A stretch of 64,000 nt of DNA, from the NCBI GenBank assembly GCA_963799285.1, contig CAWCWK010000004.1, forward strand, positions 270,309-334,308. Direction: 5' to 3'. The translations under genes and the position numbers were made by a program. The notes under the pieces were generated by a model that saw only the letters and a program-made list of their open reading frames with translations, had not been told where the DNA came from and made no database searches. Below are positions 22,421 to 41,332 of the stretch, piece by piece (positions within the stretch are counted from its first letter, which is position 1; every line of letters starts with the position of its first letter). This DNA comes from an uncultured Alphaproteobacteria bacterium. Lineage in GTDB: Bacteria; Pseudomonadota; Alphaproteobacteria; Rhizobiales; CAWCWK01.

Positions 22421-23056
22421 TCAGCCGAGGATGTCGGCCGTCGTCGCGAACGTGGCGCCTGCGGCCGTCAGGCGGTCTGTCATCGGCTGATTGAGCGCGT
22501 TGCCGAAGACGCCGGTCGCGTCCTCTACGACGACGACCTCGAAGCCCTGTTCGGCGCCGTCATGGGCCGAGAAGCCGACGCAATATTCGTAGACGAGACC
22601 CGTAAGGAAGATGCGGCGCACGCCCTTCTCGCGAAGGTAGCCGGCAAGGCCTGTCGAGGTCTTCTTGTCGTTCTCGAAGAAGGTCGAATAGGAATCGATC
22701 TCGGGGTTCACGCCCTTGCGCACGATCACGTCGACGCGGTCGACCTCGAGATCGGGGTGGAAGGCGGCGCCTTCGGTGCCCTCGACGCAATGGTCTGGCC
22801 AGAGCATCTGCTCGCCATAGGACAGCTTGGTCGTCTCGAACGGGCTCTTGCCCGGATGGGCCGACGCGAAGGACTTGTGGCCCGGCGGGTGCCAATCCTG
22901 GCTCATGGCGACGATCGGAAACGCCGCCATCAACCGATTGATGGGCGCGACGACCTTGTCACCCTCCGGGATGGCGAGCGCCCCGCCGGGGCAGAAATCG
23001 TTCTGCACGTCGATGACGACAAGCGCATCGCCGTCGCCGATCTCGATCGAAGCCAT
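22421..23056 (-). CDS. pncA: Nicotinamidase / pyrazinamidase
   Basis: ALVVIDVQNDFCPGGALAI...QDWHP.GH.SF...LWPDHCV.GT.GA.FH...VRKG....DSYS.F..N......TGL..YL...G...IFL.GL..EYCV. It is full length at 211 aa. Confidence 0.9.
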   Translation of the reverse strand: MASIEIGDGDALVVIDVQNDFCPGGALAIPEGDKVVAPINRLMAAFPIVAMSQDWHPPGHKSFASAHPGKSPFETTKLSYGEQMLWPDHCVEGTEGAAFHPDLEVDRVDVIVRKGVNPEIDSYSTFFENDKKTSTGLAGYLREKGVRRIFLTGLVYEYCVGFSAHDGAEQGFEVVVVEDATGVFGNALNQPMTDRLTAAGATFATTADILG

Positions 23057-23584: not shown

Positions 23585-24406
23585 TCAGCCGACGAAGGCG
23601 CGCTCGACGACGAAGGTGTTCGGCGCGGCGTTGGAGCCTTCGACGAGGCCATAGCCCTCCAACATCGCCTTGGTGTCGTTCAACATGGCCATGGAGCCGC
23701 AGATCATGCCGCGATCCTCGTCGGGATTGATGGTTGGCACGCCCAGATCCTCGAAGAGCCTGCCCGATGCCATGAGTTCGGTGATCCGGCCCTTGCAATG
23801 GTAGTCGCCGCGCGTCACCGAGGTGTAGAGCCTAAGGCGCCCCTTGGCGAACTCCCCGACGAGGGGGTCTTCCTGGGTCTCGCGCATCAGCGCCTCGGCA
23901 TATTGCAGCTCGTCGACCTCGCGGCAGGTATGGGTGAGGATGACCTCGTCGAACTTCTCGTAGGTCTCGGGGTCGCGCACCAGCGAGGCGAAGGGCGCGA
24001 CGCCCGTGCCGGTCGAGAACATGTAGAGCCGCTTGCCGGGTATAAGCGCATCGTTGACGAGCGTCCCCGTCGGCTTCCTGCGCATCAGCATCGTGTCGCC
24101 GACCTTGATCTTCTGGAGATGCTCGGTCAACGGGCCGCCGGGCACCTTGATCGAATAGAACTCGATCTCCTCGTCCCAGGACGGGCTTGCCATCGAATAG
24201 GCGCGGTAGACGGGCTTCTCGGCACTCGGCAGGCCGATCATGACGAATTCCCCGGAGCGAAAGCGAAAGCTTGCCGGCCGGGTGATGCGAAAGCGGAAGA
24301 GCCGGTCCGTGTAGTGCTCGACGGAGGTGACGGTCTCGGCAAAGACGCCCGTCGGTATCGTGAAGTCGACCGGGCTTCCCTTTACGATCGGTGTCATGTC
24401 CGTCAT
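23585..24406 (-). CDS. fpr: Ferredoxin-NADP+ reductase (bacterial Fpr type)
   Basis: ATG at 24406 with GAGGA upstream. Blocks present: RFR....F.F..GEF.MIGL, RAYS.AS, GPLT.HL, LYM.STGTG.APF and FVVERAFVG at the C-terminus. Confidence 0.9.
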
Positions 24407-24469
24407 GCGATCCTCATGCGTGCTGTCGTCTAGGCTCGGAACGTGGTGCGAGCGCTCCGATCTCCACCA

Positions 24470-24493
24470 ATATCGTTCGTACACAAACGATAT
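24470..24493. promoter_or_regulatory. Operator-like palindrome ATATCGTT-CGTACACA-AACGATAT upstream of fpr
   Basis: Perfect 8-bp arms were read directly. It lies 64-87 nt upstream of the fpr start. It shares the TCGTT-N8-AACGA core with sites at 29393, 39286 and 40097. Confidence 0.55.
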
Positions 24494-29427: not shown

Positions 29428-30840
29428 TTAGGCGCCACGCGGCGCGGCCAAGAGCCAGAGGCCAAAAAGCGTGTAGCAAATCATGAAGCCAGCGAGCGGT
29501 ATCTGAGACACGACGGCCCGTTCGCGATCACCGGCGAGGCGCAGCGCGACGTGGTGCGAGACGAGGACGGACAGCACGTGGCCGCCCACGACGAGCGCCG
29601 CTTGGGTCAGCCAGATTGCGCGCACGCTGTCGGCCGTGTTGAGAAAGCCGGTCGTCACCCGCGTTTCGCCAAGGCCGAAGAGGTTGGCACCCGTCGCGAG
29701 CGGATCGCCGATCGCGGCCAGGAGATACTGGCCGTCGACGAGGAAAGCGACGAGGAAATGCGAGGTGTGATAGCCGACCGCGATTGGCAGGACCGCCGGA
29801 GCGAGACCGCGAAAGAGGGATACGAAGCCGATATGCTCGGCGGGCGGCCGCCCCCGATCGGCCAGCCGCGCGCCCAGCCAGACGATGCCGGCGAAGGCGA
29901 GCGGCACGAGAATGCAGGCAGCGGCCAGTCCCCATAGCGACGACGCCAGTACGGCGCTACGGCCGGGAAATTCGAGCGGGTTCACGTCGATCCGCGCCAA
30001 CCACCAGAACGTCTCCTTCAACCCGTCAAAGCTGCCGCCGGCGAGGATGACGAGGGCGAAAACGCCAGCGCTCGCCGGCATCAGATCGTCGCGCGTCAGC
30101 CCCCAGCCCGGGCAGCCGATGGCGGGGCGTGGCGCGGGGTGGATGATCGCCGTCCGACCGAGAAGCGCGAAGAGGACCGAGAAGGCCTCGACCTGCGACA
30201 GCCAGGCCCGATCGCCGACGAGCGCCATGCCGGCGAAGGTGAAGAGGGCGTAGGCGAGCACTATCATCGCCAGCCGATCGGGATCGGCGGGTGCCGGATC
30301 GGCGATGTGGAAGGCCGAAAAGGCGATGAAGACGAGAAGCGCCGGCCAGACCCCTACACACGCCGGCATCGATAAAGGCGGCGCGCCGGCCAGCCTCAGG
30401 ATCGCCAGCCGATAAGGCCCGACCCAGGGGTTGATGAAGACCCAGGCGTTGCCAAAGAGGCCGACCACCGAGAAGAAGATGATCCAGAAGCCCGTCCAGA
30501 ACACAAGCGGCAGCGCGTTCGTCAAGGGATCGCGCGGGCCGGTGATGCCGGCCCAGACGAGGAAGACCCAGAAGGCGAAGGCCAGCAGGCTCGTTGCCGT
30601 CGTCAGGGCTCGGGGCGATGTCGGGACGGGAAGCGTTGCGGCCGCGAAGAGTTGCGTCGTCGCGTGCGTCGGCGCGGCCGAGATGAGCAGGATCGAGGCC
30701 AGCACCGAGAGGCAACCGCCGACGATGTAGTGCCCCGTCGGCAAGAGCAGCACGAAGGCCTGCTCGGAGACATGTGCCGCCGCCGGCGCGGCCAGTAATC
30801 CCATGCCTAGGATTGCGAGCGCTATCCCCCATACGCGCAT
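29428..30840 (-). CDS. Polytopic inner-membrane protein of unknown function with cleavable-looking signal peptide
   Basis: ATG at 30840 is preceded by AAGGAG (7-nt spacer). The N-terminus is MRVWGIALAILGMGLLAAPAAA/HVSEQAFVLLLPTGHY. About 12 hydrophobic segments follow. I do not recognise a family. Confidence 0.6.
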   Translation of the reverse strand: MRVWGIALAILGMGLLAAPAAAHVSEQAFVLLLPTGHYIVGGCLSVLASILLISAAPTHATTQLFAAATLPVPTSPRALTTATSLLAFAFWVFLVWAGITGPRDPLTNALPLVFWTGFWIIFFSVVGLFGNAWVFINPWVGPYRLAILRLAGAPPLSMPACVGVWPALLVFIAFSAFHIADPAPADPDRLAMIVLAYALFTFAGMALVGDRAWLSQVEAFSVLFALLGRTAIIHPAPRPAIGCPGWGLTRDDLMPASAGVFALVILAGGSFDGLKETFWWLARIDVNPLEFPGRSAVLASSLWGLAAACILVPLAFAGIVWLGARLADRGRPPAEHIGFVSLFRGLAPAVLPIAVGYHTSHFLVAFLVDGQYLLAAIGDPLATGANLFGLGETRVTTGFLNTADSVRAIWLTQAALVVGGHVLSVLVSHHVALRLAGDRERAVVSQIPLAGFMICYTLFGLWLLAAPRGA

Positions 30841-30922
30841 CGCCGCGCTCCTTCGCTGGAACCGTCCCCAAATCATGTTAGTGTGCTAGCGATCTTTTGA
30901 GAAGCGAAGAGGCCGACCACCG

Positions 30923-31705
30923 ATGCTCCGCTCCTTCCTGTTCGTCGCGCTCTGCCTCGTCGCCGGGCTTCTGGCCTGGCAGTTCCTTGCCGCGGAGGAA
31001 GAGCCGGTGGCGCTCGGCAATGCGCGGGCCGAGGTCGCGATGACGGGCGATGCGCTGCACGTCTTTGTCGATGTGACGAACCCGGCCGGGCCGGACCGCC
31101 TCGTGGGCGCGTCCTCCCCCGAAGCCCGTTCGGCCGTCATCGTCTCGCGGGCCGGCACGGAAGCGTTGCCGATTCCGGCCGGAAGCACCCCCCAGCTGTC
31201 TGCCGATGGCGCCTATCTGCGGCTGGAAGGCGTAGAGGGCGCTTTGGAGGAGGGGCGGCTGGTGCCGATCGCACTTACCTTCGAGCGCTCAGGCACGCTC
31301 TCTACCCAGGCCCTTGTCGGCGCACCGGCCGATCCGCATGCCATGCTCCGCGCGATGGGCATGATGACGGCGATGGTTGGCCCGCCGCTCGCGGACGTTC
31401 CGCCGACGCTCGCGATCGTCGTCACACCGGCCGAAGACGGTGGCTGGGCGGTCGCGCTGACGACCGGAAATTTCGTTTTCGACCCCGAAGTCGAGAAGCC
31501 CGCGCACGTCGCCGGTCACGGGCATGGCCATCTCTACCTCGACGGCTTGAAGCTCCAGCGCCTCTACGGCGCGACCGCCCGCATCGGTGCGCTGGCGCCG
31601 GGCGACTATACGGTGCTGGTCTCGCTCAATACCAATACGCACGAGGTCTATCTGGGATCGGACGGGCCGGTCATGGCCGAGGCCACGATCACCGTACGCG
31701 ACTAA
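30923..31705 (+). CDS. Periplasmic two-domain protein: PCu(A)C/DUF461-like N-domain plus His-rich C-domain
   Basis: It has a signal anchor (MLRSFLFVALCLVAGLLAW). ALHVFVDVTNPAGPDRLVGASSP...IPAGSTPQLSADGAYLRLEGV..ALEEGRLVPIALTFERSG resembles the PCuAC fold pattern. The C-domain carries HVAGHGHGHLYLDG. Confidence 0.5.
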   Translation: MLRSFLFVALCLVAGLLAWQFLAAEEEPVALGNARAEVAMTGDALHVFVDVTNPAGPDRLVGASSPEARSAVIVSRAGTEALPIPAGSTPQLSADGAYLRLEGVEGALEEGRLVPIALTFERSGTLSTQALVGAPADPHAMLRAMGMMTAMVGPPLADVPPTLAIVVTPAEDGGWAVALTTGNFVFDPEVEKPAHVAGHGHGHLYLDGLKLQRLYGATARIGALAPGDYTVLVSLNTNTHEVYLGSDGPVMAEATITVRD

Positions 31706-32031
31706 GGCGCCGGCTCGAAGACGTGCGCCACCTCGTAGAGAACGGGGGCGAAGCTCTTGCTCATTTCGGTCAGACGGCGGTTGACGTCCTGCATCTGATC
31801 CGAGCGCAGGACGGCGAGGAAAGCGTCGCGGCTCCCCCATTGCGAATAGCTGGCCACACGCGTCCTGGCGTCGTTGACGTGGATCGCGGCGCCGACGAAG
31901 CCCGGCTGATGCGTGATGAAGCCCTCGTAGGTCTCCGAGAGCAGCGCCACGATCGGCTCGCACGAGCCGGAGGGAACCTCGTAGGTCAGGATCACCGTCT
32001 GGACGTCGGACGGCTGCGTGATCTGGACCAT
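31702..32031 (-). CDS. Antibiotic-biosynthesis-monooxygenase (ABM, ferredoxin-like fold) domain protein
   Basis: ATG at 32031 is preceded by GGGAGG. The 109-aa sequence is MVQITQPSDVQTVILTYEVPSG...FITHQPGFVGAAIHVNDARTRVASYSQWGSRDAFLAVL. Confidence 0.6.
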   Translation of the reverse strand: MVQITQPSDVQTVILTYEVPSGSCEPIVALLSETYEGFITHQPGFVGAAIHVNDARTRVASYSQWGSRDAFLAVLRSDQMQDVNRRLTEMSKSFAPVLYEVAHVFEPAP

Positions 32032-32124
32032 GGCTCGGCCTCCCTCGTCGGCTCGTATTGGTATGCGTCTTGGCGCGCGTGTCGCCAGCATGCGCCGGGT
32101 TCGGCCGAGCGTCTACCGGAGCCG

Positions 32125-32709
32125 CTAGCGCAGCCCGTCTTTCCCTTCGGCCTCTTCGTGTGTCAGCCCGCCCACGCGTGGCAGCGGTCGACCACTGTCC
32201 GTAACGGCGATGGCGACGAGGATTTCGTTGGGACGCGGCGCATCGTTCAGCCTGATCTCGACGCCGTCGAAATGGGAGCGGACATAGGCCGCATCCTTGT
32301 GGCCGAGCGGAATGTCGATGTCCTGTCCGAGCCCGCCGCGCTTCTTCGACGAAGGCACGAGGGCCGCGCCCTTCTCGACCGCCTTGCGGAGCGGCGCTCC
32401 CATCTTCGGGTGCAGAAGGGCCGCGGCATGCTCCAGTTCGCCATTCTCTCCGACCATGGCGGCCTTGCCGTAGCTCTCCGCCTCCTCCGGACTGATACCA
32501 AGCGCTGCGACGGCGCGTTCCCCGAGAAGGCCGCCGAGCTCGGCGCCGATCTCCATGAGTTCGCTCAGGTCCTCGACATAGGTGCCCGCAAACGGGTTCT
32601 CGATGACGGCGGCGGCGATGACCTTGCGGGTGGGCGGCGAGATGGTCCGTCCGCCCTCCTTCCGGGTCTCCTCGACCCAGGTCACGAGCTTTCTGATAGC
32701 GGCGCTCAT
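32125..32709 (-). CDS. Amino-acid-synthesis family protein (AA_synth / DUF1185), paralogue B
   Basis: ENPFAGTYVEDLSELMEIGAELGGLL...YGKAAMVGENGELEHAAALLHPKMG...VPSSKKRGGLGQDIDIPLGHKDAAYVRSHFDGVEIRLNDAPRPNEILV. The start overlaps the upstream paralogue's stop by 4 nt. Confidence 0.75.
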   Translation of the reverse strand: MSAAIRKLVTWVEETRKEGGRTISPPTRKVIAAAVIENPFAGTYVEDLSELMEIGAELGGLLGERAVAALGISPEEAESYGKAAMVGENGELEHAAALLHPKMGAPLRKAVEKGAALVPSSKKRGGLGQDIDIPLGHKDAAYVRSHFDGVEIRLNDAPRPNEILVAIAVTDSGRPLPRVGGLTHEEAEGKDGLR

Positions 32710-33287
32710 TTCAGACCGTCCTCTCCTTTGATGTCAGCGGCTTCGAGGCCGCCGGAGCGCGAGTGGACGCGCGGACCCGTCGTCATGACGAGCGCGACCA
32801 GCATCTCGTCGGCGCGGGGCGCGTCGTTGAGGCCAATCTCCATCGAATCGAAATGGCTGCGCACGTAGGACGCGTTGACATGCGTGATCGGCACGTCGAT
32901 GCGGGCGCCCATGCCGCCGACCTTCTTGGCAGACGGCACGATGGCCTTCGAGCCGCCGATCACTTCGCGCATGGCGTAGCCGCCCGGCGCGTGCCAGAGC
33001 GCGCCGTGCTCCAGCTCGCCCGCCGCACCGACCAGCGAGGCCTTGCCATAGCCCTCGATTTTGTCCGCCCCGCCAAGCGCGGCGACGAGCTGCTTGGCGA
33101 GCTCCAGGCCGAGCGGGCGCAGATCATCGATGAAGCCCTGAATGTCCGGCTCGTAGCGCCCCGCGAACGGGTTGGCGATGACGGCAAAGGCCGCGCCGCG
33201 AAGCAGTGGGGTGGCCGGTGCCGGCCCTCCCTCATGGAAGATCTCCTCCACGGTGACGACGCGTTTTCGAATCTCGGGGGCAGGCAT
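32706..33287 (-). CDS. Amino-acid-synthesis family protein (AA_synth / DUF1185), paralogue A
   Basis: ANPFAGRYEPDIQGFIDDLRPLGLELA...YGKASLVGAAGELEHGALWHAPGG...VPSAKKVGGMGARIDVPITHVNASYVRSHFDSMEIGLNDAPRADEMLV. Confidence 0.75.
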   Translation of the reverse strand: MPAPEIRKRVVTVEEIFHEGGPAPATPLLRGAAFAVIANPFAGRYEPDIQGFIDDLRPLGLELAKQLVAALGGADKIEGYGKASLVGAAGELEHGALWHAPGGYAMREVIGGSKAIVPSAKKVGGMGARIDVPITHVNASYVRSHFDSMEIGLNDAPRADEMLVALVMTTGPRVHSRSGGLEAADIKGEDGLK

Positions 33288-34186
33288 CAGGCGATCTCCA
33301 GTCTGGTCTCACGGGCGGCGAGAAGCGGCCCGGCATGGGCGCTCTCGCCTTGAAGGAAGAGGGCGGCGGCGAGGATCTGCCTTTGCGCAACCATTCGCGC
33401 CGCGCGGCGCCGTCCGGCCTCGAGGGCTGCGCGCTTGTCGGCTTTGGCGAGCGGCGGCACCCGCGTCACGACGAGCCGGTCGCCGAGATCGCTATCGGGA
33501 TGCAGCGTCTCGGCCGGTGCGCGCGAGATGCCGGGATGGTCCGGCAGGTCGACGGCATTGGCGATCAGCGTCGCGGCGACGTCGGCCTCGGCCGCGCAGC
33601 GCGCGAGAACGGTCACGCTCGTCGCGATACCGAGTGAGAGGCTGCGCCCCCCTGACCCGCTCGTCGCGATGCCGCCAATGCCGGCATGGGCGTCGATCGT
33701 GATGCGGCCGAGATCGGAGCCCTCCACACCTGCCATCGCGATCGCATAGGTCGCATCGCCAGCGAGATGCAGCGCGATGTCGCCGCCATTGTTGACATAG
33801 GCCCGGCGCGGAGCGGTCACGGCCAGGATTGCCGCCAGGACCTCGTCGGAGACGGAGCCCGCCACCGCGATCATCGGCGTGAGGAACGCCGTCCCGCAGA
33901 AGGGCCGCGCTGCGCGATACATCCGACATGCGGTCGGATCGGCGGGGTCTGGCGTATCCCCGCGTAGCGGCATGCGGTGGGTCGGCAACTCGGAGACGAG
34001 TCCGTTCAAAATGCTATCGAAGCGCGTCGCGGCGGCCTCGAATGCCGCATTCCGCTCGACGTCATTCCTCGCATCGACGCCGACGATCAGATCGATCGGC
34101 CCGTGCTGGAGATGCAGGCGCCGTCCGCCGTCGAGAAGTACCGCCGCCGGCCCCTGCATCGGGGTCTGGGCTCCAGCCTTACGCAC
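33287..34186 (-). CDS. UPF0280-family protein (ApbE-like superfamily)
   Basis: LLDGGRRLHLQHGPIDLIVGV...GTAFLTPMIAVAGSVSDEVL...GIGGIATSGSGGRSLSLGIATSVTVLA. It overlaps the upstream reductase-like gene by 8 nt. An alternative start is ATG 34159. Confidence 0.65.
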   Translation of the reverse strand: MRKAGAQTPMQGPAAVLLDGGRRLHLQHGPIDLIVGVDARNDVERNAAFEAAATRFDSILNGLVSELPTHRMPLRGDTPDPADPTACRMYRAARPFCGTAFLTPMIAVAGSVSDEVLAAILAVTAPRRAYVNNGGDIALHLAGDATYAIAMAGVEGSDLGRITIDAHAGIGGIATSGSGGRSLSLGIATSVTVLARCAAEADVAATLIANAVDLPDHPGISRAPAETLHPDSDLGDRLVVTRVPPLAKADKRAALEAGRRRAARMVAQRQILAAALFLQGESAHAGPLLAARETRLEIA

Positions 34187-35687
34187 TCGCCTTCCAGCGA
34201 TAGTTGTGCTGAGCCGTCGGGTTGGCGTCGGGGTCGATCCGGTCGACCCGGCGCACGTCGGCGGGAATGATCTCCTCGATCGGCTTCACATGTTCGATAT
34301 GTCCGCCGAGCGCCACGTAGTCCGAGCGCCGCATGGTGAACTCGATCGGCGCGACGAGGGCCGGCGTCGGCACGTAGCCAAAGGCGTTGGACGGCATGTC
34401 CATCACGTCCGCCATGACGGTGATGCCGCCGCCCGGCCAGACATAGGCGTTGGCCCCGCCGCAGGAGACGTGCGTCAGCGAATCCTTGACCGACCTGGTG
34501 AGCTTGACCGGGTTCTCGGTCACGCCGGCGCGCAGCGAGCCGCCGGCTCCGCCCATGAAGAGCACCGAGCAGAGCGAGGGCTCGCAATTCTCAGCGATCC
34601 GCTCGACGGAGACCTGAAGCGTTTCCGGCAAAGGCATCGGCTGCGGCTCGAGGTTCTCATCGAGTTCGAAATAGGCGTATTGCTCGCCGGTCGTCGAGAC
34701 CATCAGCAGGCGCAGGCCTTGCCAGGCGACCTCGGGATCGGCCGGTTTCAGGATCGTCAGCGGATCGTCGACATCGGTCCCGCCCCAGCCGGTGCCGGGC
34801 TCGGCGACCTGGAAGTAGCGGCCAGGCGTCGAGCGACGCCCCTTCACGCGGATGCCGGTGGGGGGCACGTTCAGCATCTTCCCGGCCTGATGCTCGGAGA
34901 GGACGCCGGTGATGTGATCATCGACCACGATGACCTCGTCGACATGCTGGGCCCATTGCGAGGCGAACATGCCGATGGTGGCCGAGCCGCAGCCGACGCG
35001 CATCAGCTTCTCCTCGACACCGTTGACGATCGGCGCCTTGCCCGCCTGGACGACGAGGGACGCGCCCCCGTCTATTGTCAGCTCGACCGCCTCGCGATTG
35101 CAGAGCTTGAGGAGCGTGTCGCAGGTCACGCGCCCTTCCTTCTTGCTGCCGCCCGTCAAGTGCTCGACGCCGCCGAGGGAGAGCATCTTCGATCCGTACT
35201 CGCCCGTCATCACGTGACCCACCGGCTCGCCATCGACGCGCACGATCTCGCGCTCGTGGCCGATGAAACGGTCGGTGTCGATCTTCACCTTCACGCCGCA
35301 ATAGCTGAAGATGCCCTCGGTCACCACCGTGACCATGTCGGCGTCGCCGACCGTCTGGGAGACGATGAAGGGCGCCGGCTTGTAGTCCGGATAGGTCGTG
35401 CCGGCGCCGATCGCAGTCACGAAGGGCCGGCTGCCCTGCAGGATGTCGCCGTCCCAGTCGCTGCCGTCGGTCCCCTTCATGAAGGGCACGGCCCTCGCGC
35501 CGCTCTCGCGGGAATTCTCGATGATCGTCAGCGGGTCGAGCCGCACCAGCCGTCCCTCCCGGTTGCCATAGCGGTCGCAGGCGCCAGACCGGCCTTCCGC
35601 GATGTAGCAAAGGACCGGGCAGGCGTCGCAGCGGATCTTCCCAGGTGTGGCGACCTTGTCGGCGGCCGGGCTTGTCGTGTCAGACAT
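34179..35687 (-). CDS. hnr: 6-hydroxynicotinate reductase-like iron-sulfur (flavo)protein
   Basis: It is 502 aa with an N-terminal Cys cluster, KIRCDACPVLCYIAEGRSGACDRYGN. I recognise it as the proteobacterial family carried in databases under this name. Context: it sits between a Mo-hydroxylase and UPF0280/AA_synth genes, opposite an enamidase. Confidence 0.65.
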   Translation of the reverse strand: MSDTTSPAADKVATPGKIRCDACPVLCYIAEGRSGACDRYGNREGRLVRLDPLTIIENSRESGARAVPFMKGTDGSDWDGDILQGSRPFVTAIGAGTTYPDYKPAPFIVSQTVGDADMVTVVTEGIFSYCGVKVKIDTDRFIGHEREIVRVDGEPVGHVMTGEYGSKMLSLGGVEHLTGGSKKEGRVTCDTLLKLCNREAVELTIDGGASLVVQAGKAPIVNGVEEKLMRVGCGSATIGMFASQWAQHVDEVIVVDDHITGVLSEHQAGKMLNVPPTGIRVKGRRSTPGRYFQVAEPGTGWGGTDVDDPLTILKPADPEVAWQGLRLLMVSTTGEQYAYFELDENLEPQPMPLPETLQVSVERIAENCEPSLCSVLFMGGAGGSLRAGVTENPVKLTRSVKDSLTHVSCGGANAYVWPGGGITVMADVMDMPSNAFGYVPTPALVAPIEFTMRRSDYVALGGHIEHVKPIEEIIPADVRRVDRIDPDANPTAQHNYRWKASA

Positions 35688-38421
35688 CGCTCGATTCCTT
35701 GATGGCCTGGCGCAGTTTCGACGGCGTGACGGGAACCGAACGGATGCGCACGCCGCAGGCGTGGTGGATGGCGTTCAGAAGCGCGGGCGCGGTCGGAATG
35801 AGCACGTGCTCGCCGAGGCCCTTGGCACCGAATGGTCCGTGCGGGTCCGGCACCTCGACGATGAGCGTGTCGATGGGCGGGACGTCGCCGACGGTCGGAA
35901 TGAGATAGTCGTGCAGGTTCTCGGTCCGGCCCGGAAGATACTCCTCCATCAGCGCCATGCCGAGCCCTTGTGCGATGCCACCATGGACCTGGCCCTCGAC
36001 CAGCATCGGGTTGATCGCCTTGCCGACATCGTGCGCCGCGACGAAGCGGACGGGCCTGGTGGTGCCGAGCCGTGTGTCGATCTCGACCACCGCGAGTTGG
36101 GCCGCATAGCCGAACTGCGCATAGGGCGAGCCCTGTCCCTTCTCGTCGAGCGGCTTGGTCGGCGGATCGTAGGTCTCTTCGGCCCGCAGGGCGTAGCCCT
36201 CGCGGTCCGGGGTAAGGCTCGCGGTATCGATCGCATGCTCGCCCGCTACGTCCCGCACGACGATCCGACCGTCGGCAAAGGCGATCGTCGCGTCCTCGGC
36301 CGCGTTCACCTGGCGTAGGATCGTGGCGCGCAGCGCCTCGCCGCACAAGCGCGCCGCGTTGCCGGACACGAAGGTCTGGCGCGAGGCGGAGGTCTTGCCG
36401 GCATCGGGCGTCACGTCCGTATCGCCATAGACGAGCGAGACGTTGGCGACGGAGGCGCCAAGCGCGGTCGCGAAGATCTGGGCAATGACGGTGTTGGCGC
36501 CCTGGCCGATATCCATCGCGCCCTGATGAAGGACGACTTGGCCGTTCGGCCGCACGCCGGCCTTGATGGTCGAGGGGTTGGGCAGCGAGGTGTTGCCGCA
36601 GCCATACCACCCGGCGGCGAGGCCGACGCCGCGCCGCTTGGAGCCGGTCTGACTGTCGTTGAACGCTTCCGCCCTGCCGCGCTCCTCGCTCCAGGCGGGA
36701 CGCAGCGCCTCGAGGCAGGCGCGAATGCCGACGCCGCTTTCAAAGACCTGACCGCAGACAGTGGGCGTGCCGTCTTCGAGCGCATTCAGAATGCGGAACT
36801 CCAAGGGATCGAGTCCCACCGCTTCGGCCAGCTCGTCGAAGAGCGTTTCCTGCGCGATCGCCGATTGCGGCACGCCGAAGCCGCGAAACGCGCCGGCCGG
36901 CGGACAATGCGTGTGAATCCCCTTGGCCTCGGCCCGGTAGTCCGTCACGCGATAGGGGCCCGAGGCGTGGACCGGCACGCGATTGGCGACCGTCGGTCCC
37001 CAGGAGGCATACGCACCAGTGTTGAAGGCGCCGCGAAAGTCGAAGCCCGACAGCGTGCCGTCCTTCTTAGCGCCGATCGTCAGGCGGATGTCCGACGGAT
37101 GGCGCTTGGTGGTCGATTGCAGGGATTCGGTGCGGGTGTAGGTGAGCCGGACCGGCCGGCCGGTCTTCAGCGCGGCGAGCGCAAGGTAAGGCTGGACTGA
37201 GAGATCGAGCTTGGAGCCAAAGCCGCCGCCGACGCCGGTCGGCACGACGCGAATGCGGCTCGCGTCCATGCCCAGGATGATCTCGAGCGACTCCTTGTCC
37301 ATAACGGCGGCTTGGGTACAGGCGTGAACCTCGATGCGGCCACCCACGATCTCGGCAAACCCGGCCTCGGGCTCGATATAGGCGTGCTCGACGAAACCGG
37401 AGACGAACGATCCTTCGACCGTCACGTCTGCCTCCGCCAGCGCGGCCTTCGGATCGCCGCAGGTCACGAAGCCGGTGCACATCAGGTTGCCGCCCCGGCC
37501 TTCATGCAGCTGCGCGGCGCCTGCGTCTCGGGCCTCGGCGACCGTGCGGGCCGCCTCGCGCTCCGTCCAAGTGACGGGGAAGGTCTCGGGATCGAAGGTG
37601 CGGATCGCGTCCGGCTGGCCGACCACGGCCGCGACCGCCTCGCCGCGAAAGCGTGCGACGCCTTCGGCAAAGACCGGCTGGTCGGCGAAGGCGGGGATGA
37701 CGCCGAACAGGTTCTTGCCCGGAATATCCGCCGCCGTCAGAACGGCCTCCACGCCGGGGGTCTTGGCGGCCCAGGCCTCCAGATCACCAAAGGCGAAGGC
37801 GGCGTGCGGATAGGGCGAGCGCACGACCTTGATCTCGAGCGTTCCGGCCGGCGCCACGTCGTCGCCATAGCGCTCCGCGCCGGTCAGCTTGTCGGCGCCG
37901 TCGAGCCGGCGGATCGCATCGCCCGCGACGCCTTCGCCATGGAGGGCCGGCGCGACGCCGCGTACGGCGTCGATGATCTTTCGGTAGCCCGTGCAGCGGC
38001 AAAGCACGCCGCCGAGCGCATTCTCGGTCTCACGCTCGCTCGGGCTCGCATTGTCGCGCAGCAGGGCGACGGCCGATACGACCATGCCGGGCGTGCAGAT
38101 GCCGCATTGCGCGGCGCCGTGGTCCTGGAAGCGCTCGGCGAGGTCTTGCGCGATCGGATCGGCTTCGGCGAGGCCGGCGGCCGTCACGACCTCGCAATCG
38201 GCACACTGATGCGCCGGAACGAGGCAGGCGCAGGCCACGTCGCCGTCAATGAGAACGCTACAGGCGCCGCAATCGCCGGCATTGCAGCCGATCTTGACGT
38301 CGCGGGCGCCCAGCCGCTCACGCAGAGCTTCGGACAGGCGCTCGCCGGGATAGGGATCGATCTCGACCGGCCGCCCGTTGAGGCGGAACGCAATGCGCGT
38401 ATCGACGACTTTCTGGTCCAT
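35680..38421 (-). CDS. Molybdopterin hydroxylase, fused [2Fe-2S] small-subunit and MoCo large-subunit polypeptide; candidate nicotinate dehydrogenase
   Basis: ATG at 38421 shares 1 nt with the FAD-subunit stop. The N-terminus has CNAGDCGACSV and QCGICTPGMV...CRCTGY (two 2Fe-2S motifs). An aldehyde-oxidase/xanthine-dehydrogenase a/b hammerhead and MoCo-binding region follow, for 913 aa in total. Confidence 0.85.
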   Translation of the reverse strand: MDQKVVDTRIAFRLNGRPVEIDPYPGERLSEALRERLGARDVKIGCNAGDCGACSVLIDGDVACACLVPAHQCADCEVVTAAGLAEADPIAQDLAERFQDHGAAQCGICTPGMVVSAVALLRDNASPSERETENALGGVLCRCTGYRKIIDAVRGVAPALHGEGVAGDAIRRLDGADKLTGAERYGDDVAPAGTLEIKVVRSPYPHAAFAFGDLEAWAAKTPGVEAVLTAADIPGKNLFGVIPAFADQPVFAEGVARFRGEAVAAVVGQPDAIRTFDPETFPVTWTEREAARTVAEARDAGAAQLHEGRGGNLMCTGFVTCGDPKAALAEADVTVEGSFVSGFVEHAYIEPEAGFAEIVGGRIEVHACTQAAVMDKESLEIILGMDASRIRVVPTGVGGGFGSKLDLSVQPYLALAALKTGRPVRLTYTRTESLQSTTKRHPSDIRLTIGAKKDGTLSGFDFRGAFNTGAYASWGPTVANRVPVHASGPYRVTDYRAEAKGIHTHCPPAGAFRGFGVPQSAIAQETLFDELAEAVGLDPLEFRILNALEDGTPTVCGQVFESGVGIRACLEALRPAWSEERGRAEAFNDSQTGSKRRGVGLAAGWYGCGNTSLPNPSTIKAGVRPNGQVVLHQGAMDIGQGANTVIAQIFATALGASVANVSLVYGDTDVTPDAGKTSASRQTFVSGNAARLCGEALRATILRQVNAAEDATIAFADGRIVVRDVAGEHAIDTASLTPDREGYALRAEETYDPPTKPLDEKGQGSPYAQFGYAAQLAVVEIDTRLGTTRPVRFVAAHDVGKAINPMLVEGQVHGGIAQGLGMALMEEYLPGRTENLHDYLIPTVGDVPPIDTLIVEVPDPHGPFGAKGLGEHVLIPTAPALLNAIHHACGVRIRSVPVTPSKLRQAIKESSDV

Positions 38422-39266
38422 CAGACGACCTCCTCGCCACAGGCGCGCAAGACGGCGCGGCGACACAGTTCGCAGACGACGTCGAGCCGGTACGCCGCCG
38501 AGCCGCGCACGTCCGAGATCGGATCGAGCGGCGTCAGAAGCGCGGGATCCTCCAGCTGCGCATCGCGCAAGTCGGCAACCGCCATGCCCTCCAGTTGCCG
38601 CTCCAGCGCATCCAGCCGCTCGGCCACCGGAGAGCAGCTTCCGACCGCGACGCGCGCGTCCGTGATCCGGCCGTCCCGCACCGTGGCAACGGCCGCGACC
38701 ATGGCGATCGAGATGACCAGATATTTGCGGGCGCCGAGCTTTTCGAACGCACTGCCCGCATCGCCAGCGACGGATGGGATGTGAAGCGCGGAGACGAGCT
38801 CGCCGTCCTTAAGAGCCGTCTTGCGCACACCCTGGACGAACTGGCGCAGCGGCATCGTGCGGGCGCCCTCGAGGCCGCTCACCTCGACATGCGCGTCAAG
38901 CGCGAGAAGGGGCGGAACGCCATCCGCAGCCGGCGAGGCGTTGCAGATATTACCGGCAAGCGTCGCGCGGTTCTGAATTTGGGCGGAGCCGACCTGGAGG
39001 GCAGCCTGCTTCAAGGCATCGAAGGCAGGCGGCAGATCGGCCCTGACCACATCAGTCCAAGTCGTCGCCGCGCCGATACGCCAGCCGTCATCGACCCGGC
39101 GGATACCGCGCAAGCCTTCGATCCGCGTGATATCCAGCGCTCGGTGAGGGGGATGGCCGGGCGCCATGGAGGGAAAGACGTCCGTTCCCCCGGCGATCAC
39201 TTGGCCGCCGGAGACGTTGAGCGTCGTCAGCGCCTCGGCCAAACTCGTCGCGACAGTGTAGGACAA
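38421..39266 (-). CDS. FAD-binding subunit of a molybdopterin hydroxylase (CoxM/XdhB-like)
   Basis: TTG start at 39266 with GGAGAG upstream. Blocks: VIAGGTDVFPSM, IQNRATLAGNICNASPAAD and DVRGSAAYR. Confidence 0.85.
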   Translation of the reverse strand: MSYTVATSLAEALTTLNVSGGQVIAGGTDVFPSMAPGHPPHRALDITRIEGLRGIRRVDDGWRIGAATTWTDVVRADLPPAFDALKQAALQVGSAQIQNRATLAGNICNASPAADGVPPLLALDAHVEVSGLEGARTMPLRQFVQGVRKTALKDGELVSALHIPSVAGDAGSAFEKLGARKYLVISIAMVAAVATVRDGRITDARVAVGSCSPVAERLDALERQLEGMAVADLRDAQLEDPALLTPLDPISDVRGSAAYRLDVVCELCRRAVLRACGEEVV

Positions 39267-39405: not shown

Positions 39406-39852
39406 CTAGCCGAGCTTGGCGAGAAGGCTGAGAAAGACCGTCTGATCCGCTGGGCTCAGTGGCGCCAGCGTCTCGCGAGTGATGGCGGCGCCTGCCGCAT
39501 AGAGCTGCCGGGCAAACTCCTGATGGCCCGGCGCGATGGAGAGCAGCGTGCGGCGCTGGTCGTTGGGATCGGCCTTGGCGGCGACCAAGCCCTTGCGCCG
39601 CAGGCGATCGACCACGCCCTTGATGGTCGCTACGTCCATCGCCGTCTGACGGCCGAGCTCGTTTTGCGAGCAATGGCCGAGTTCCACGAGCTTTGCGAGG
39701 GCCGCGAACTGCGTGGGCGTCACGTCGAGCGGGATCAGCTTCTGGAAGATCGCCGTGTGGCGCTGGGTCGCCTGGCGCAACAGGAACCCGACCTGCGTTT
39801 CGAGGACATAGGCTCTGTCCTTCGCCTCTCTCTCCTCGACTGCCAGACTCAT
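39406..39852 (-). CDS. MarR-family transcriptional regulator
   Basis: ATG at 39852 has GGAG 8 nt upstream. QVGFLLRQATQRHTAIFQKLIPLDVTPTQFAALAKLVELGHCSQNELGRQTAMDVATIKGVVDRLRRKGLV...DPNDQRRTLLSI is a winged helix-turn-helix. Confidence 0.85.
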   Translation of the reverse strand: MSLAVEEREAKDRAYVLETQVGFLLRQATQRHTAIFQKLIPLDVTPTQFAALAKLVELGHCSQNELGRQTAMDVATIKGVVDRLRRKGLVAAKADPNDQRRTLLSIAPGHQEFARQLYAAGAAITRETLAPLSPADQTVFLSLLAKLG

Positions 39853-39966
39853 CTCGTACTCCAAAGCTCGCCAGAGGCGCTGTTGAGAGGCCTTGGGGAT
39901 CTCCCAGTCATGCCACGACCATCCCTCGATGGGAAACCCGCCTTGCTCCGTCCTCACCAAGGGCAC

Positions 39967-40138: not shown

Positions 40139-41332
40139 ATGGCGGACGCCGCGAGCAAGCTGGTCGTGAGGAATATCGGGCTGCTTCTGACGGGCAAGAT
40201 CGAGGCGCCGATAGCGGACGGGGACTGCGTGATCGCCATCGACGGGCGCATTCACGCCTTCGGCTACGAGCGCGACCTCGACACCGAAGGCGCCGATACG
40301 ATCGTCGACGCCAAGGGCGTCACACTCGCGCCCGGCCTCATCGACAGCCATGTCCACCCGGTCGTCGGCGATTACACGCCCCGCCAGCAGCAGCTCCACT
40401 GGATCGATTCGACCTTGCATGGCGGCGTCACGACCATGATCTCAGCCGGCGAGGTACACATGCCGGGCCGCCCGAAGGACATCGTCGGCCTCAAGGCGAT
40501 GGCGATCGCGGCGCAGCGTTGGTACGAGAACTTTCGCCCCTCCGGCGTCAAGGTGCTTGCCGGCGCCCCCGTCATCGAGCACGGCATGGAGGAGCACGAC
40601 TTCAAGGAACTGGCCGACGCCGGCGTGCGGTTCCTCGGCGAGGTCGGTCTCGGCACCGTCAAAGACGGCAAGACAGCCAACCAGATGGTCTCCTGGGCGC
40701 GCAAATACGGCATCCAGTCGACGATCCACACGGGCGGACCCTCGATCCCCGGCTCGGGGCTCATCGACGCGGACATGGTGCTGGAGACCGGCACCGATGT
40801 CGTCGGGCATATTAATGGCGGCCACTCGGCCCTGCCAGACGATCAGATCGTCTGCCTCTGCGAGAACTGCGCCAAGGGCCTCGAGATCGTCCACAACGGC
40901 AACGAGCGGGCCGCCCTCTTGACGCTCAACACGGCGCGAGAGCTCGACAAGCTCGACCAGATCATCCTCGGAACGGACGGGCCGGCCGGCTCCGGCGTGC
41001 AGCCTTTGGGCATCTTGCGCATGGTCGCCATGTTGTCCGCGCTCGGCAATGTCGATGCTGCGACGGCCTTCTGCTTCGCCAACGGCAACACGGCCCGCCA
41101 GCGCGAACTCGATACCGGCCTGCTCGAGAAGGGCTATGCCGCCGATTTCGTCCTCATGGACCAGGCCCAGCACGCGCCCGGCAAGGACATTCTGGAGAGC
41201 GTGCAGCTCGGCAACCTGCCGGGCGTCGGCATGACGATCATCGACGGCGTCGTGCGCTCCATGCGCAGCCGCAACACGCCTCCGGCGCACAAGCTGCCTG
41301 AACTGGTGTCGGGCCCCCGTCCGGCTGCCTGA
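40139..41332 (+). CDS. ena: Enamidase (1,4,5,6-tetrahydro-6-oxonicotinate amidohydrolase) homologue
   Basis: It is colinear with the E. barkeri enzyme as I recall it: DSHVHPVVGDYTPRQ, LHGGVTTMISAGEVHMPGRPKD, GVKVLAGA, GEVGLGTVK, HTGGPSIPGSG, GHINGGHSA, LGILRM and SRNTPPA. Length is 397 aa. Confidence 0.8.
   Translation: MADAASKLVVRNIGLLLTGKIEAPIADGDCVIAIDGRIHAFGYERDLDTEGADTIVDAKGVTLAPGLIDSHVHPVVGDYTPRQQQLHWIDSTLHGGVTTMISAGEVHMPGRPKDIVGLKAMAIAAQRWYENFRPSGVKVLAGAPVIEHGMEEHDFKELADAGVRFLGEVGLGTVKDGKTANQMVSWARKYGIQSTIHTGGPSIPGSGLIDADMVLETGTDVVGHINGGHSALPDDQIVCLCENCAKGLEIVHNGNERAALLTLNTARELDKLDQIILGTDGPAGSGVQPLGILRMVAMLSALGNVDAATAFCFANGNTARQRELDTGLLEKGYAADFVLMDQAQHAPGKDILESVQLGNLPGVGMTIIDGVVRSMRSRNTPPAHKLPELVSGPRPAA

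Follow-up and report, generated by a model that had tools for sequence, protein, structure and literature searches.

A UPF0280 protein of the ApbE-like superfamily encoded beside 6-hydroxynicotinate reductase: a candidate dedicated accessory factor of proteobacterial nicotinate clusters

A 64,000-nucleotide (nt) stretch of DNA from an uncultured alphaproteobacterium of the Rhizobiales (contig CAWCWK010000004.1, positions 270,309 to 334,308; hereafter the window) carries a gene of the UPF0280/COG2122 family directly downstream of hnr, the gene for a protein resembling 6-hydroxynicotinate reductase (Hnr). The genome has a GC (guanine plus cytosine) content of 67%, and the hnr/UPF0280 region is part of a minus-strand operon. 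A dedicated functional link between UPF0280 and Hnr is well founded because the pair is almost always adjacent in related loci, and most likely UPF0280 helps Hnr work. A possible form of this help, put forward here tentatively, is that UPF0280 serves as a dedicated cytoplasmic accessory factor of the proteobacterial Hnr module and handles a nucleotide-linked cofactor, likely flavin adenine dinucleotide (FAD), for Hnr. The genes at the centre of the argument are the following (coordinates of the window):

34179..35687, minus strand: hnr, 6-hydroxynicotinate reductase-like after the NCBI naming of its homologues, 502 amino acids (aa)
34160..34178, minus strand: spacer of 19 nt, with GGAG, between the hnr stop (TAA 34181..34179) and the UPF0280 ATG
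33287..34159, minus strand: UPF0280/COG2122 gene (ApbE-like), 290 aa from the favoured ATG; the mechanically called open reading frame (ORF) extends to a GTG at 34186
32706..33287, minus strand: first DUF1185/AA_synth gene (PF06684, E 3e-70; PDB 3byq)
32125..32709, minus strand: second DUF1185/AA_synth gene (PF06684, E 2e-74), overlapping the first by 4 nt

The link between the two genes was quantified in three samples of loci anchored on hnr. A scan limited to one genome per GTDB species drew 80 hnr loci, 79 of them assessable, from at least 600 matches; UPF0280 lies immediately downstream of hnr in 73 of the 79 and elsewhere in the cluster in one. A metagenome sample collected with an AT-biased codon pattern yielded 42 hnr loci of 31-57% GC, and UPF0280 is the next gene after hnr in every one of the 27 with enough downstream sequence, at only 28-52% identity. 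It also follows hnr directly on all hnr-bearing plasmids of PLSDB (26/26). Combined, UPF0280 is directly downstream in 126 of 132 assessable loci, which span Alpha-, Beta- and Gammaproteobacteria as well as metagenome-assembled genomes of Acidobacteriota, GC contents from 31 to 69% and UPF0280 identities down to 28%. This adjacency is far beyond chance. The AT-biased pattern also served to seek hnr of the Firmicutes (E. barkeri) type in the metagenomes; all 42 loci turned out to encode a proteobacterial-type Hnr, at 56-79% identity.

The conserved unit comprises four genes, hnr, UPF0280 and two copies of DUF1185, and the position of both DUF1185 genes after UPF0280 is kept in most related loci. 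Loci in which the usual partners have given way to a NicAB-type hydroxylase and hydantoinase-like genes still show the four in this order. In Neorhizobium pNCHU2750a (L137, 8968-16428), hnr-UPF0280-DUF1185-DUF1185 is followed by hyuA/hyuB (hydantoinase/oxoprolinase-like), and the module is paired with a nicB-type nicotinate dehydrogenase, not with an enzyme of the xanthine dehydrogenase type and an enamidase; this arrangement suggests an alternative ring-opening step. Among the cluster genes the median identity is 80% for the enamidase, 71% for Hnr, 68-76% for DUF1185 and 51% for UPF0280, the least conserved core gene. Divergence above that of the catalytic genes is typical of accessory factors and fits such a role for UPF0280.

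Tight coupling of hnr and UPF0280 is the rule in relatives, where 45 of the 73 genome loci have an overlap of 1, 4 or 8 nt between the hnr stop and the start of UPF0280, and the median gap is -1. For the window itself, the original prediction had UPF0280 beginning 8 nt before the hnr stop. Both ORFs are present on the minus strand (34179..35687, 502 aa; 33287..34186, 299 aa with a GTG start), and the overlap exists if the second is read from the GTG at 34186 (GTGCGTAA); as a real junction it was rejected, since the GTG start is unlikely and has no backing from homologues, from the hidden Markov model or from the public protein. Sequence comparison makes the ATG at 34159 the most likely start, leaving the 19-nt spacer. 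It is favoured because NF003322 matches the 299-aa ORF from residue 11 onwards, the N-termini of all 35 aligned homologues coincide with the internal Met (MQGP...), the identical public protein (P0001) has 290 aa, and in the two closest relatives (L003 and L004) the UPF0280 ATG lies 6 nt after the hnr stop. At the other end of the gene the UPF0280 stop does share one base with the next start, as had been noted (TGATG at 33287, with the ATG of the first DUF1185 gene). A genuine overlap of 8 nt is found elsewhere in the operon, where the stop of the molybdenum (Mo) subunit gene lies over the hnr start (ATGTCTGA), in agreement with the RefSeq annotation.

The earlier placement of the gene in UPF0280, and of UPF0280 in the ApbE-like superfamily, was borne out by the family model and by the predicted fold. 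NF003322 matches residues 11-291 of the 299-aa ORF at E 1.4e-104 with 349 bits (cut-off 290), the identical 290-aa public protein carries PF27030 (named AbpE_bact in Pfam), and the best 150 matches in a search of a representative library all belong to the same subfamily. The AlphaFold2 (AF2) model of UPF0280 has a predicted local distance difference test score (pLDDT) of 90.5. Its top Foldseek match is DVU1097 (2o34; E 4e-11, template modelling (TM) score 0.55-0.68), which is also matched by profile at E 6.6e-10 and is the only structure reached in the PDB profile search. Foldseek further matches the model to structures of ApbE, Ftp and FmnB (7esc, 5mgy, 3pnd, 2o18, 6nxi, 4xgv and 1vrm) at E 1e-4 to 1e-3 and probability 1.0, with TM scores of only 0.35-0.51. 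On the strength of these matches the modelled protein is confirmed as having an ApbE-like fold. It has in common with ApbE, Ftp and FmnB (PF02424) the double T-fold architecture, the Asp and Thr of the Mg site, the TSG Ser, an Arg and the GG strand, and differs from them by a reduced helical insertion, the lack of a lipoprotein signal and an identity of 11-15%. Core residues A98-G101, S104, N124-D127, S167, G171, S173, S175, G177, D193, T197 and N201 are at least 90% conserved when scored in both the Hnr-linked and the Desulfovibrio-type sets. The cysteines at positions 78, 88 and 188 are not invariant and no Cys is conserved in the subfamily. The N-terminus, as read from the sequence, carries no signal peptide, so UPF0280 would share its compartment with Hnr.

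A closer comparison with ApbE was made with hhalign, using a UPF0280 profile enriched with low-GC homologues against ApbE of E. coli (Ec), Salmonella and Vibrio (Vc); the two align with 66% probability at E 6e-5. In this sequence alignment the UPF0280 segment EADVAAT pairs with EADAWDT, so that the putative Mg ligands D193 and T197 are kept (D284 and T288 of Ftp from Treponema pallidum, Tp). GGIATSG pairs with HGISTSG and the TSG Ser is kept as S167 (Tp S240, Vc S241), as are the Arg after this Ser (R172) and the GG strand (NGGD). The Mg-site and TSG residues are invariant in 36 UPF0280 homologues and common to the Hnr-linked and Desulfovibrio-type subfamilies. In Tp Ftp, FAD pyrophosphatase activity is lost on mutation of either D284 or T288; of the two, transfer of flavin mononucleotide (FMN) has been reported on for D284A alone, where it is lost too, and the Mg-ligating residues are the only ones found critical for FMN transfer (PMC4436053, PMC4767422).

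The neighbouring 502-aa protein had been called reductase-like, and it does belong to the family that NCBI names 6-hydroxynicotinate reductase, with 76-87% identity to proteins of that name. Genes for a Mo hydroxylase and an enamidase-like protein place hnr in a nicotinate-pathway context, as a candidate for EC 1.3.7.1. Mo enzyme, hnr, enamidase-like amidohydrolase and ABC transporter are common to the window and to the nicotinate clusters of Eubacterium barkeri, Azorhizobium, Bradyrhizobium and Rhodopseudomonas, whose published descriptions give no role to UPF0280 or DUF1185. The E. barkeri Hnr is said, after Alhapel et al. in 2006, to contain covalently bound flavin and iron-sulfur (Fe-S) clusters. 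Ten Cys of the Hnr family are invariant (20, 23, 27, 37, 130, 189, 196, 233, 368 and 373), the first of them in an N-terminal C-x2-C-x3-C-x9-C motif. A homologue from the Bradyrhizobiaceae is 42% identical to E. barkeri Hnr (PMC3511419). Sequence and profile searches with Hnr gave no match above threshold in Pfam, NCBIfam or the PDB. A sub-threshold match to GCV_T_C, a C-terminal barrel, at residues 130-166 recurs in 24 of 30 homologues (E about 0.006-0.01) and is the only domain hint for this orphan family. In the Granulosicoccus Hnr of L036 (7968-9518) the N-terminal Cys motif is followed by some 30 inserted residues of acidic, low-complexity sequence.

In the mechanism that is proposed, UPF0280 would be made from the same mRNA as Hnr and directly after it. 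It would possess an ApbE-derived, Mg2+-dependent phosphate/nucleotide site built from the AVAG loop, NGGD, S167, R172 and D193...T197, and with this site would handle a nucleotide-linked cofactor, most likely FAD. The cofactor would then be delivered to Hnr or fixed in it, making UPF0280 a maturation factor and not a pathway enzyme. UPF0280 would thus be a non-canonical ApbE, with another target site and other chemical details for any transfer. Family membership, fold, metal-site residues, near-universal synteny, the stop/start overlap and faster divergence are directly supported; Hnr as the client, FAD as the ligand and the formation of a covalent bond are steps that we infer. A cytoplasmic ApbE that serves a soluble reductase has a precedent in the fumarate reductase of K. 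pneumoniae (PMC12052999).

A number of observations weigh against this mechanism. The conserved ApbE His, which acts as general base (PMC12052999), aligns (Vc H257, Tp H256; LSHVIDP) to position 176 of UPF0280 (GRSLSLGIA), which is variable and occupied by L, M, F or R. The Glu or Lys of the second metal site (Ec E169, Tp K165) is absent, the Glu falling in a gap (STVGEGYAAD versus IAVA-GSVSDE). No confident hhalign alignment to the flavin-contacting region (Ec Y60, Tp N55) was obtained for UPF0280 before residue 95; COG2122 homology has likewise been described as stopping short of the part of ApbE that binds the flavin (PMC5764234, citing Rauch & Perona 2016). UPF0280 has no hit to the Pfam ApbE model (PF02424) even at E<=10. 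UPF0280 agrees with ApbE in its predicted fold and, by alignment, in its Mg-site residues; it departs from ApbE in the His and the second-metal residue, and its N-terminal region could not be aligned with the flavin-binding part. Flavinylation targets carry the motif D-x-x-[ST]-G-A-[ST] (PMC12052999), and a regular-expression scan of 13 proteins found it neither in Hnr, where the original prediction had proposed to look for a flavinylation-type Ser/Thr motif, nor in the other cluster proteins; the looser TGAS occurs among the cluster proteins only in the periplasmic binding protein. Flavinylation of the canonical ApbE type (Thr-FMN) at the standard motif was rejected, the motif being missing from the cluster proteins, and by sequence a canonical ApbE mechanism for UPF0280 is not established. 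Because the His base, the second-metal ligand and the client motif are lacking, any transfer by UPF0280 would have to differ both in target site and in chemistry. On the side of the client, the AF2 model of Hnr (pLDDT 50) is too poor to locate a flavin site, as the alignment of 30 sequences is too shallow, and Foldseek with this model returned only noise; no flavin or Fe-S domain could therefore be assigned.

The synteny has exceptions that count on the same side. No UPF0280 gene lies within 8 kb of hnr in five loci (L036, L039, L043, L048 and L075), of which four are from Granulosicoccaceae and the fifth is from Acidisphaera. Conversely, in one lineage (L133/L139; GCA_028280885.1), found in four independent samples, UPF0280 and a pair of DUF1185 genes are present and no hnr lies within 10 kb. 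Its gene order is enamidase-MarR-FAD-Moco-UPF0280-DUF1185-DUF1185, where FAD and Moco denote the subunits of the Mo hydroxylase, with the stop of the Moco gene overlapping the start of UPF0280. Either hnr is encoded at another place in the genome, or UPF0280 and DUF1185 do something that does not depend on Hnr. After the DUF1185 genes of this lineage, on the opposite strand, lie nine tandem paralogues of about 160-180 aa that have no Pfam hit (L133 12054-17383, L139 12073-17401). Taken as a whole, the proposal that UPF0280 flavinylates or otherwise matures the reductase has the dedicated link, the fold and the Mg ligands in its favour, and the missing His, second-metal residue and client motif and the unaligned flavin region speak against it. 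As a flavin-maturase idea it is partly supported and is a good, testable lead.

Studies on other COG2122 proteins also bear on the question. Homocysteine synthesis in Desulfovibrio vulgaris depends on COG2122 along with DUF39 and a NIL/ferredoxin protein, and the cofitness of COG2122 with DUF39 reaches r=0.98 (PMC5764234). Phenotypes affecting homocysteine synthesis and the assimilation of sulfide are on record for the COG2122 members DvMF_0044 and MA1715 (PMC5764234, PMC12068725), so the expectation that Hnr would be the first physiological client of UPF0280 was wrong at the level of the family. That COG2122, encoded beside an enzyme linked to ferredoxin, might act as a flavin transferase was put forward in 2014 (PMC4045070) and has since been questioned. 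It weighs further against the flavin reading that other members partner DUF39/COG1900 enzymes, which are not known flavoproteins (PMC5764234, PMC12068725). In two Desulfovibrionaceae contexts of COG2122, no adjacent partner gene and no adjacent DUF39 was seen. The window protein and the Desulfovibrio and methanogen proteins (2o34, that is DVU1097; MA1715; DvMF_0044) have the motifs AVAG..S, NGGD, S...G.S.S.G and AD..AT...N in common. The studied members have about 250 aa; the subfamily of the window protein is longer, at about 290 aa, with some 40 extra residues inserted at about 218-258 and an N-terminal motif of its own, RLHLQHGPIDL. The studied members act with DUF39/COG1900 in homocysteine and sulfide metabolism, whereas the subfamily of the window is locked to hnr. 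The literature searched contains no link of UPF0280 to Hnr and nothing on Hnr maturation.

These precedents lead to an alternative in which UPF0280 would support the ferredoxin-dependent reductase without flavin, through sulfur or persulfide trafficking or through assembly or repair of an unusual Fe-S site, its ApbE-like site binding another phosphorylated ligand; a role of this kind has been proposed for COG2122 in the biosynthesis of homocysteine and coenzyme M. The requirement for COG2122 in homocysteine synthesis (PMC5764234) and the description of MA1715 as a sulfur-trafficking protein (PMC12068725) point in this direction, as do the 10 invariant Cys of Hnr with their N-terminal cluster motif, a family core that is the same as in the Desulfovibrio-type proteins, and a UPF0280 in which the flavin-binding part of ApbE is not detectable. 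A persulfide carrier is unlikely, however, because the subfamily has no conserved Cys; moreover, the residues that are conserved form a metal and phosphate site, and nicotinate reduction needs no sulfur chemistry. Support of this kind is judged unlikely. Slightly better placed, though still doubtful, is the possibility that UPF0280, instead of being a maturase, works as a stoichiometric subunit or as an enzyme alongside the DUF1185 pair, either in a reductase complex or in steps after ring opening such as a proteobacteria-specific processing of 2-formylglutarate towards glutarate. UPF0280 and DUF1185 travel together: they relocate as a unit in L049, are both missing downstream of hnr in L036, L039 and L043, and stand directly behind the Moco gene in the lineage without hnr. 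The overlapping junctions that run through hnr, UPF0280, DUF1185 and DUF1185 are also typical of complex subunits. [quoted passage not shown] The association is nevertheless separable, since L052 and L068 keep UPF0280 with hnr while DUF1185 is elsewhere, and in L075 hnr is followed by DUF1185 without UPF0280. UPF0280 also diverges much faster than the cluster enzymes, and the sole catalytic precedents of its fold are FAD:protein FMN transfer and FAD hydrolysis.

It is very improbable that the adjacency is meaningless and UPF0280 merely hitch-hikes in a catabolic cluster that is mobile. Plasmids often carry the cluster, and an IS1071-flanked UPF0280 remnant occurs in Hydrogenophaga, but the order is kept in those 126 of 132 loci across phyla and the whole range of GC content and identity given above, and the UPF0280 ORFs are intact with conserved core residues. 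The Hydrogenophaga case is plasmid pBPS33-1 of Hydrogenophaga sp. BPS33 (L136), where UPF0280 without hnr directly follows the IS1071 transposase gene. The unit around it recurs on the plasmid (4 matching places) and includes genes for a Rieske protein, a VanB-type oxidoreductase and a TTT transporter; this looks like a remnant that a composite transposon has picked up. At a more general level, it is conceivable, if improbable, that COG2122/UPF0280 proteins are ApbE-derived maturases which each load a cofactor, possibly a flavin attached at a non-canonical site, into a ferredoxin-dependent two-electron reductase. Such a class may have as its clients Hnr of aerobes that degrade nicotinate and, in methanogens and sulfate reducers, the DUF39/COG1900 enzymes L-ASST and MMP16.

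The operon of the window is transcribed in the order MarR, FAD subunit, 2Fe-2S/molybdopterin subunit, 502-aa reductase, UPF0280, DUF1185, DUF1185 and ABM-domain gene. Farther downstream lie a gene for a 482-aa protein, a Liv-type ABC transporter, a ferredoxin-NADP reductase (FNR)-like gene and an isochorismatase-family gene. The remaining features are:

40139..41332, plus strand: divergent enamidase-like amidohydrolase (PF01979, PF07969)
39406..39966, minus strand: MarR-family regulator at the operon head (PF01047), conserved in relatives
38421..39266, minus strand: FAD-binding subunit of a molybdenum hydroxylase (PF00941, PF03450)
35680..38466, minus strand: fused 2Fe-2S and molybdopterin subunit, nicotinate-dehydrogenase-like (Pfam Fer2_2, Ald_Xan_dh_C, MoCoBD_1, MoCoBD_2)
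31702..32091, minus strand: ABM-domain gene, downstream of the DUF1185 pair
23585..24484, minus strand: ferredoxin-NADP reductase-like protein (FAD_binding_6, NAD_binding_1)

The true start of the fused subunit is probably a Met at about 38421. Copies of the enamidase-like amidohydrolase in related clusters are 61-90% identical. Ferredoxin and/or FNR genes are often adjacent to the module, and the FNR-like gene of the window recurs beside it in relatives; this suggests that in aerobes electrons pass from NAD(P)H through FNR and ferredoxin to Hnr, with the protein at 23585..24484 as the probable supplier of electrons to the reductase. In one genome (L140, 8210-9405) a 7Fe-type ferredoxin (Fer4 and DUF3470) and an FNR-like gene come directly after the module.

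Convergent to the end of the operon is a PCu(A)C copper-chaperone-like gene (30923-31705, plus strand) whose product has a signal-peptide-like N-terminus. It seems to be part of the cluster because a PCu(A)C gene occupies the equivalent place in the plasmid cluster of Sulfitobacter mediterraneus. The 482-aa protein (29428-30876, minus strand) has no Pfam or NCBIfam match. Its homologues, at 33-43% identity, adjoin the gene for a Liv-type substrate-binding protein in five loci (L030, L034, L038, L069 and L131); L059 has a homologue with no binding-protein gene detected, and in L137 an unnamed gene beside livK is of similar size. The isochorismatase-family gene (22421-23056, minus strand) at the far end of the cluster possibly encodes a nicotinamidase and has homologues in L005, L007 and L031.

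The UPF0280 gene and the cluster were already catalogued. New are the quantification of a near-obligate four-gene module and a testable function for a branch of the ApbE superfamily whose departures from ApbE are defined. Both UPF0280/COG2122 and DUF1185 are widespread and have solved structures but no known biochemistry, and COG2122 is also implicated in the sulfur amino-acid synthesis of methanogens and sulfate reducers. Aerobes that are amenable to genetics, such as Sulfitobacter, Rhizobium and Azorhizobium, carry the four-gene module, in many cases on plasmids. Growth on nicotinate and the colour of an Fe-S flavoenzyme would serve there as read-outs of a simple system, which could reveal the function of the branch. 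Should UPF0280 not be a flavin transferase, the function of COG2122 would still be narrowed. If it is one, with a new target site, the scope of post-translational flavinylation would widen and a flavin-tagging tool would become available. If COG2122 proteins are maturases in general, this could explain the difficulty of reconstituting COG1900 activity.

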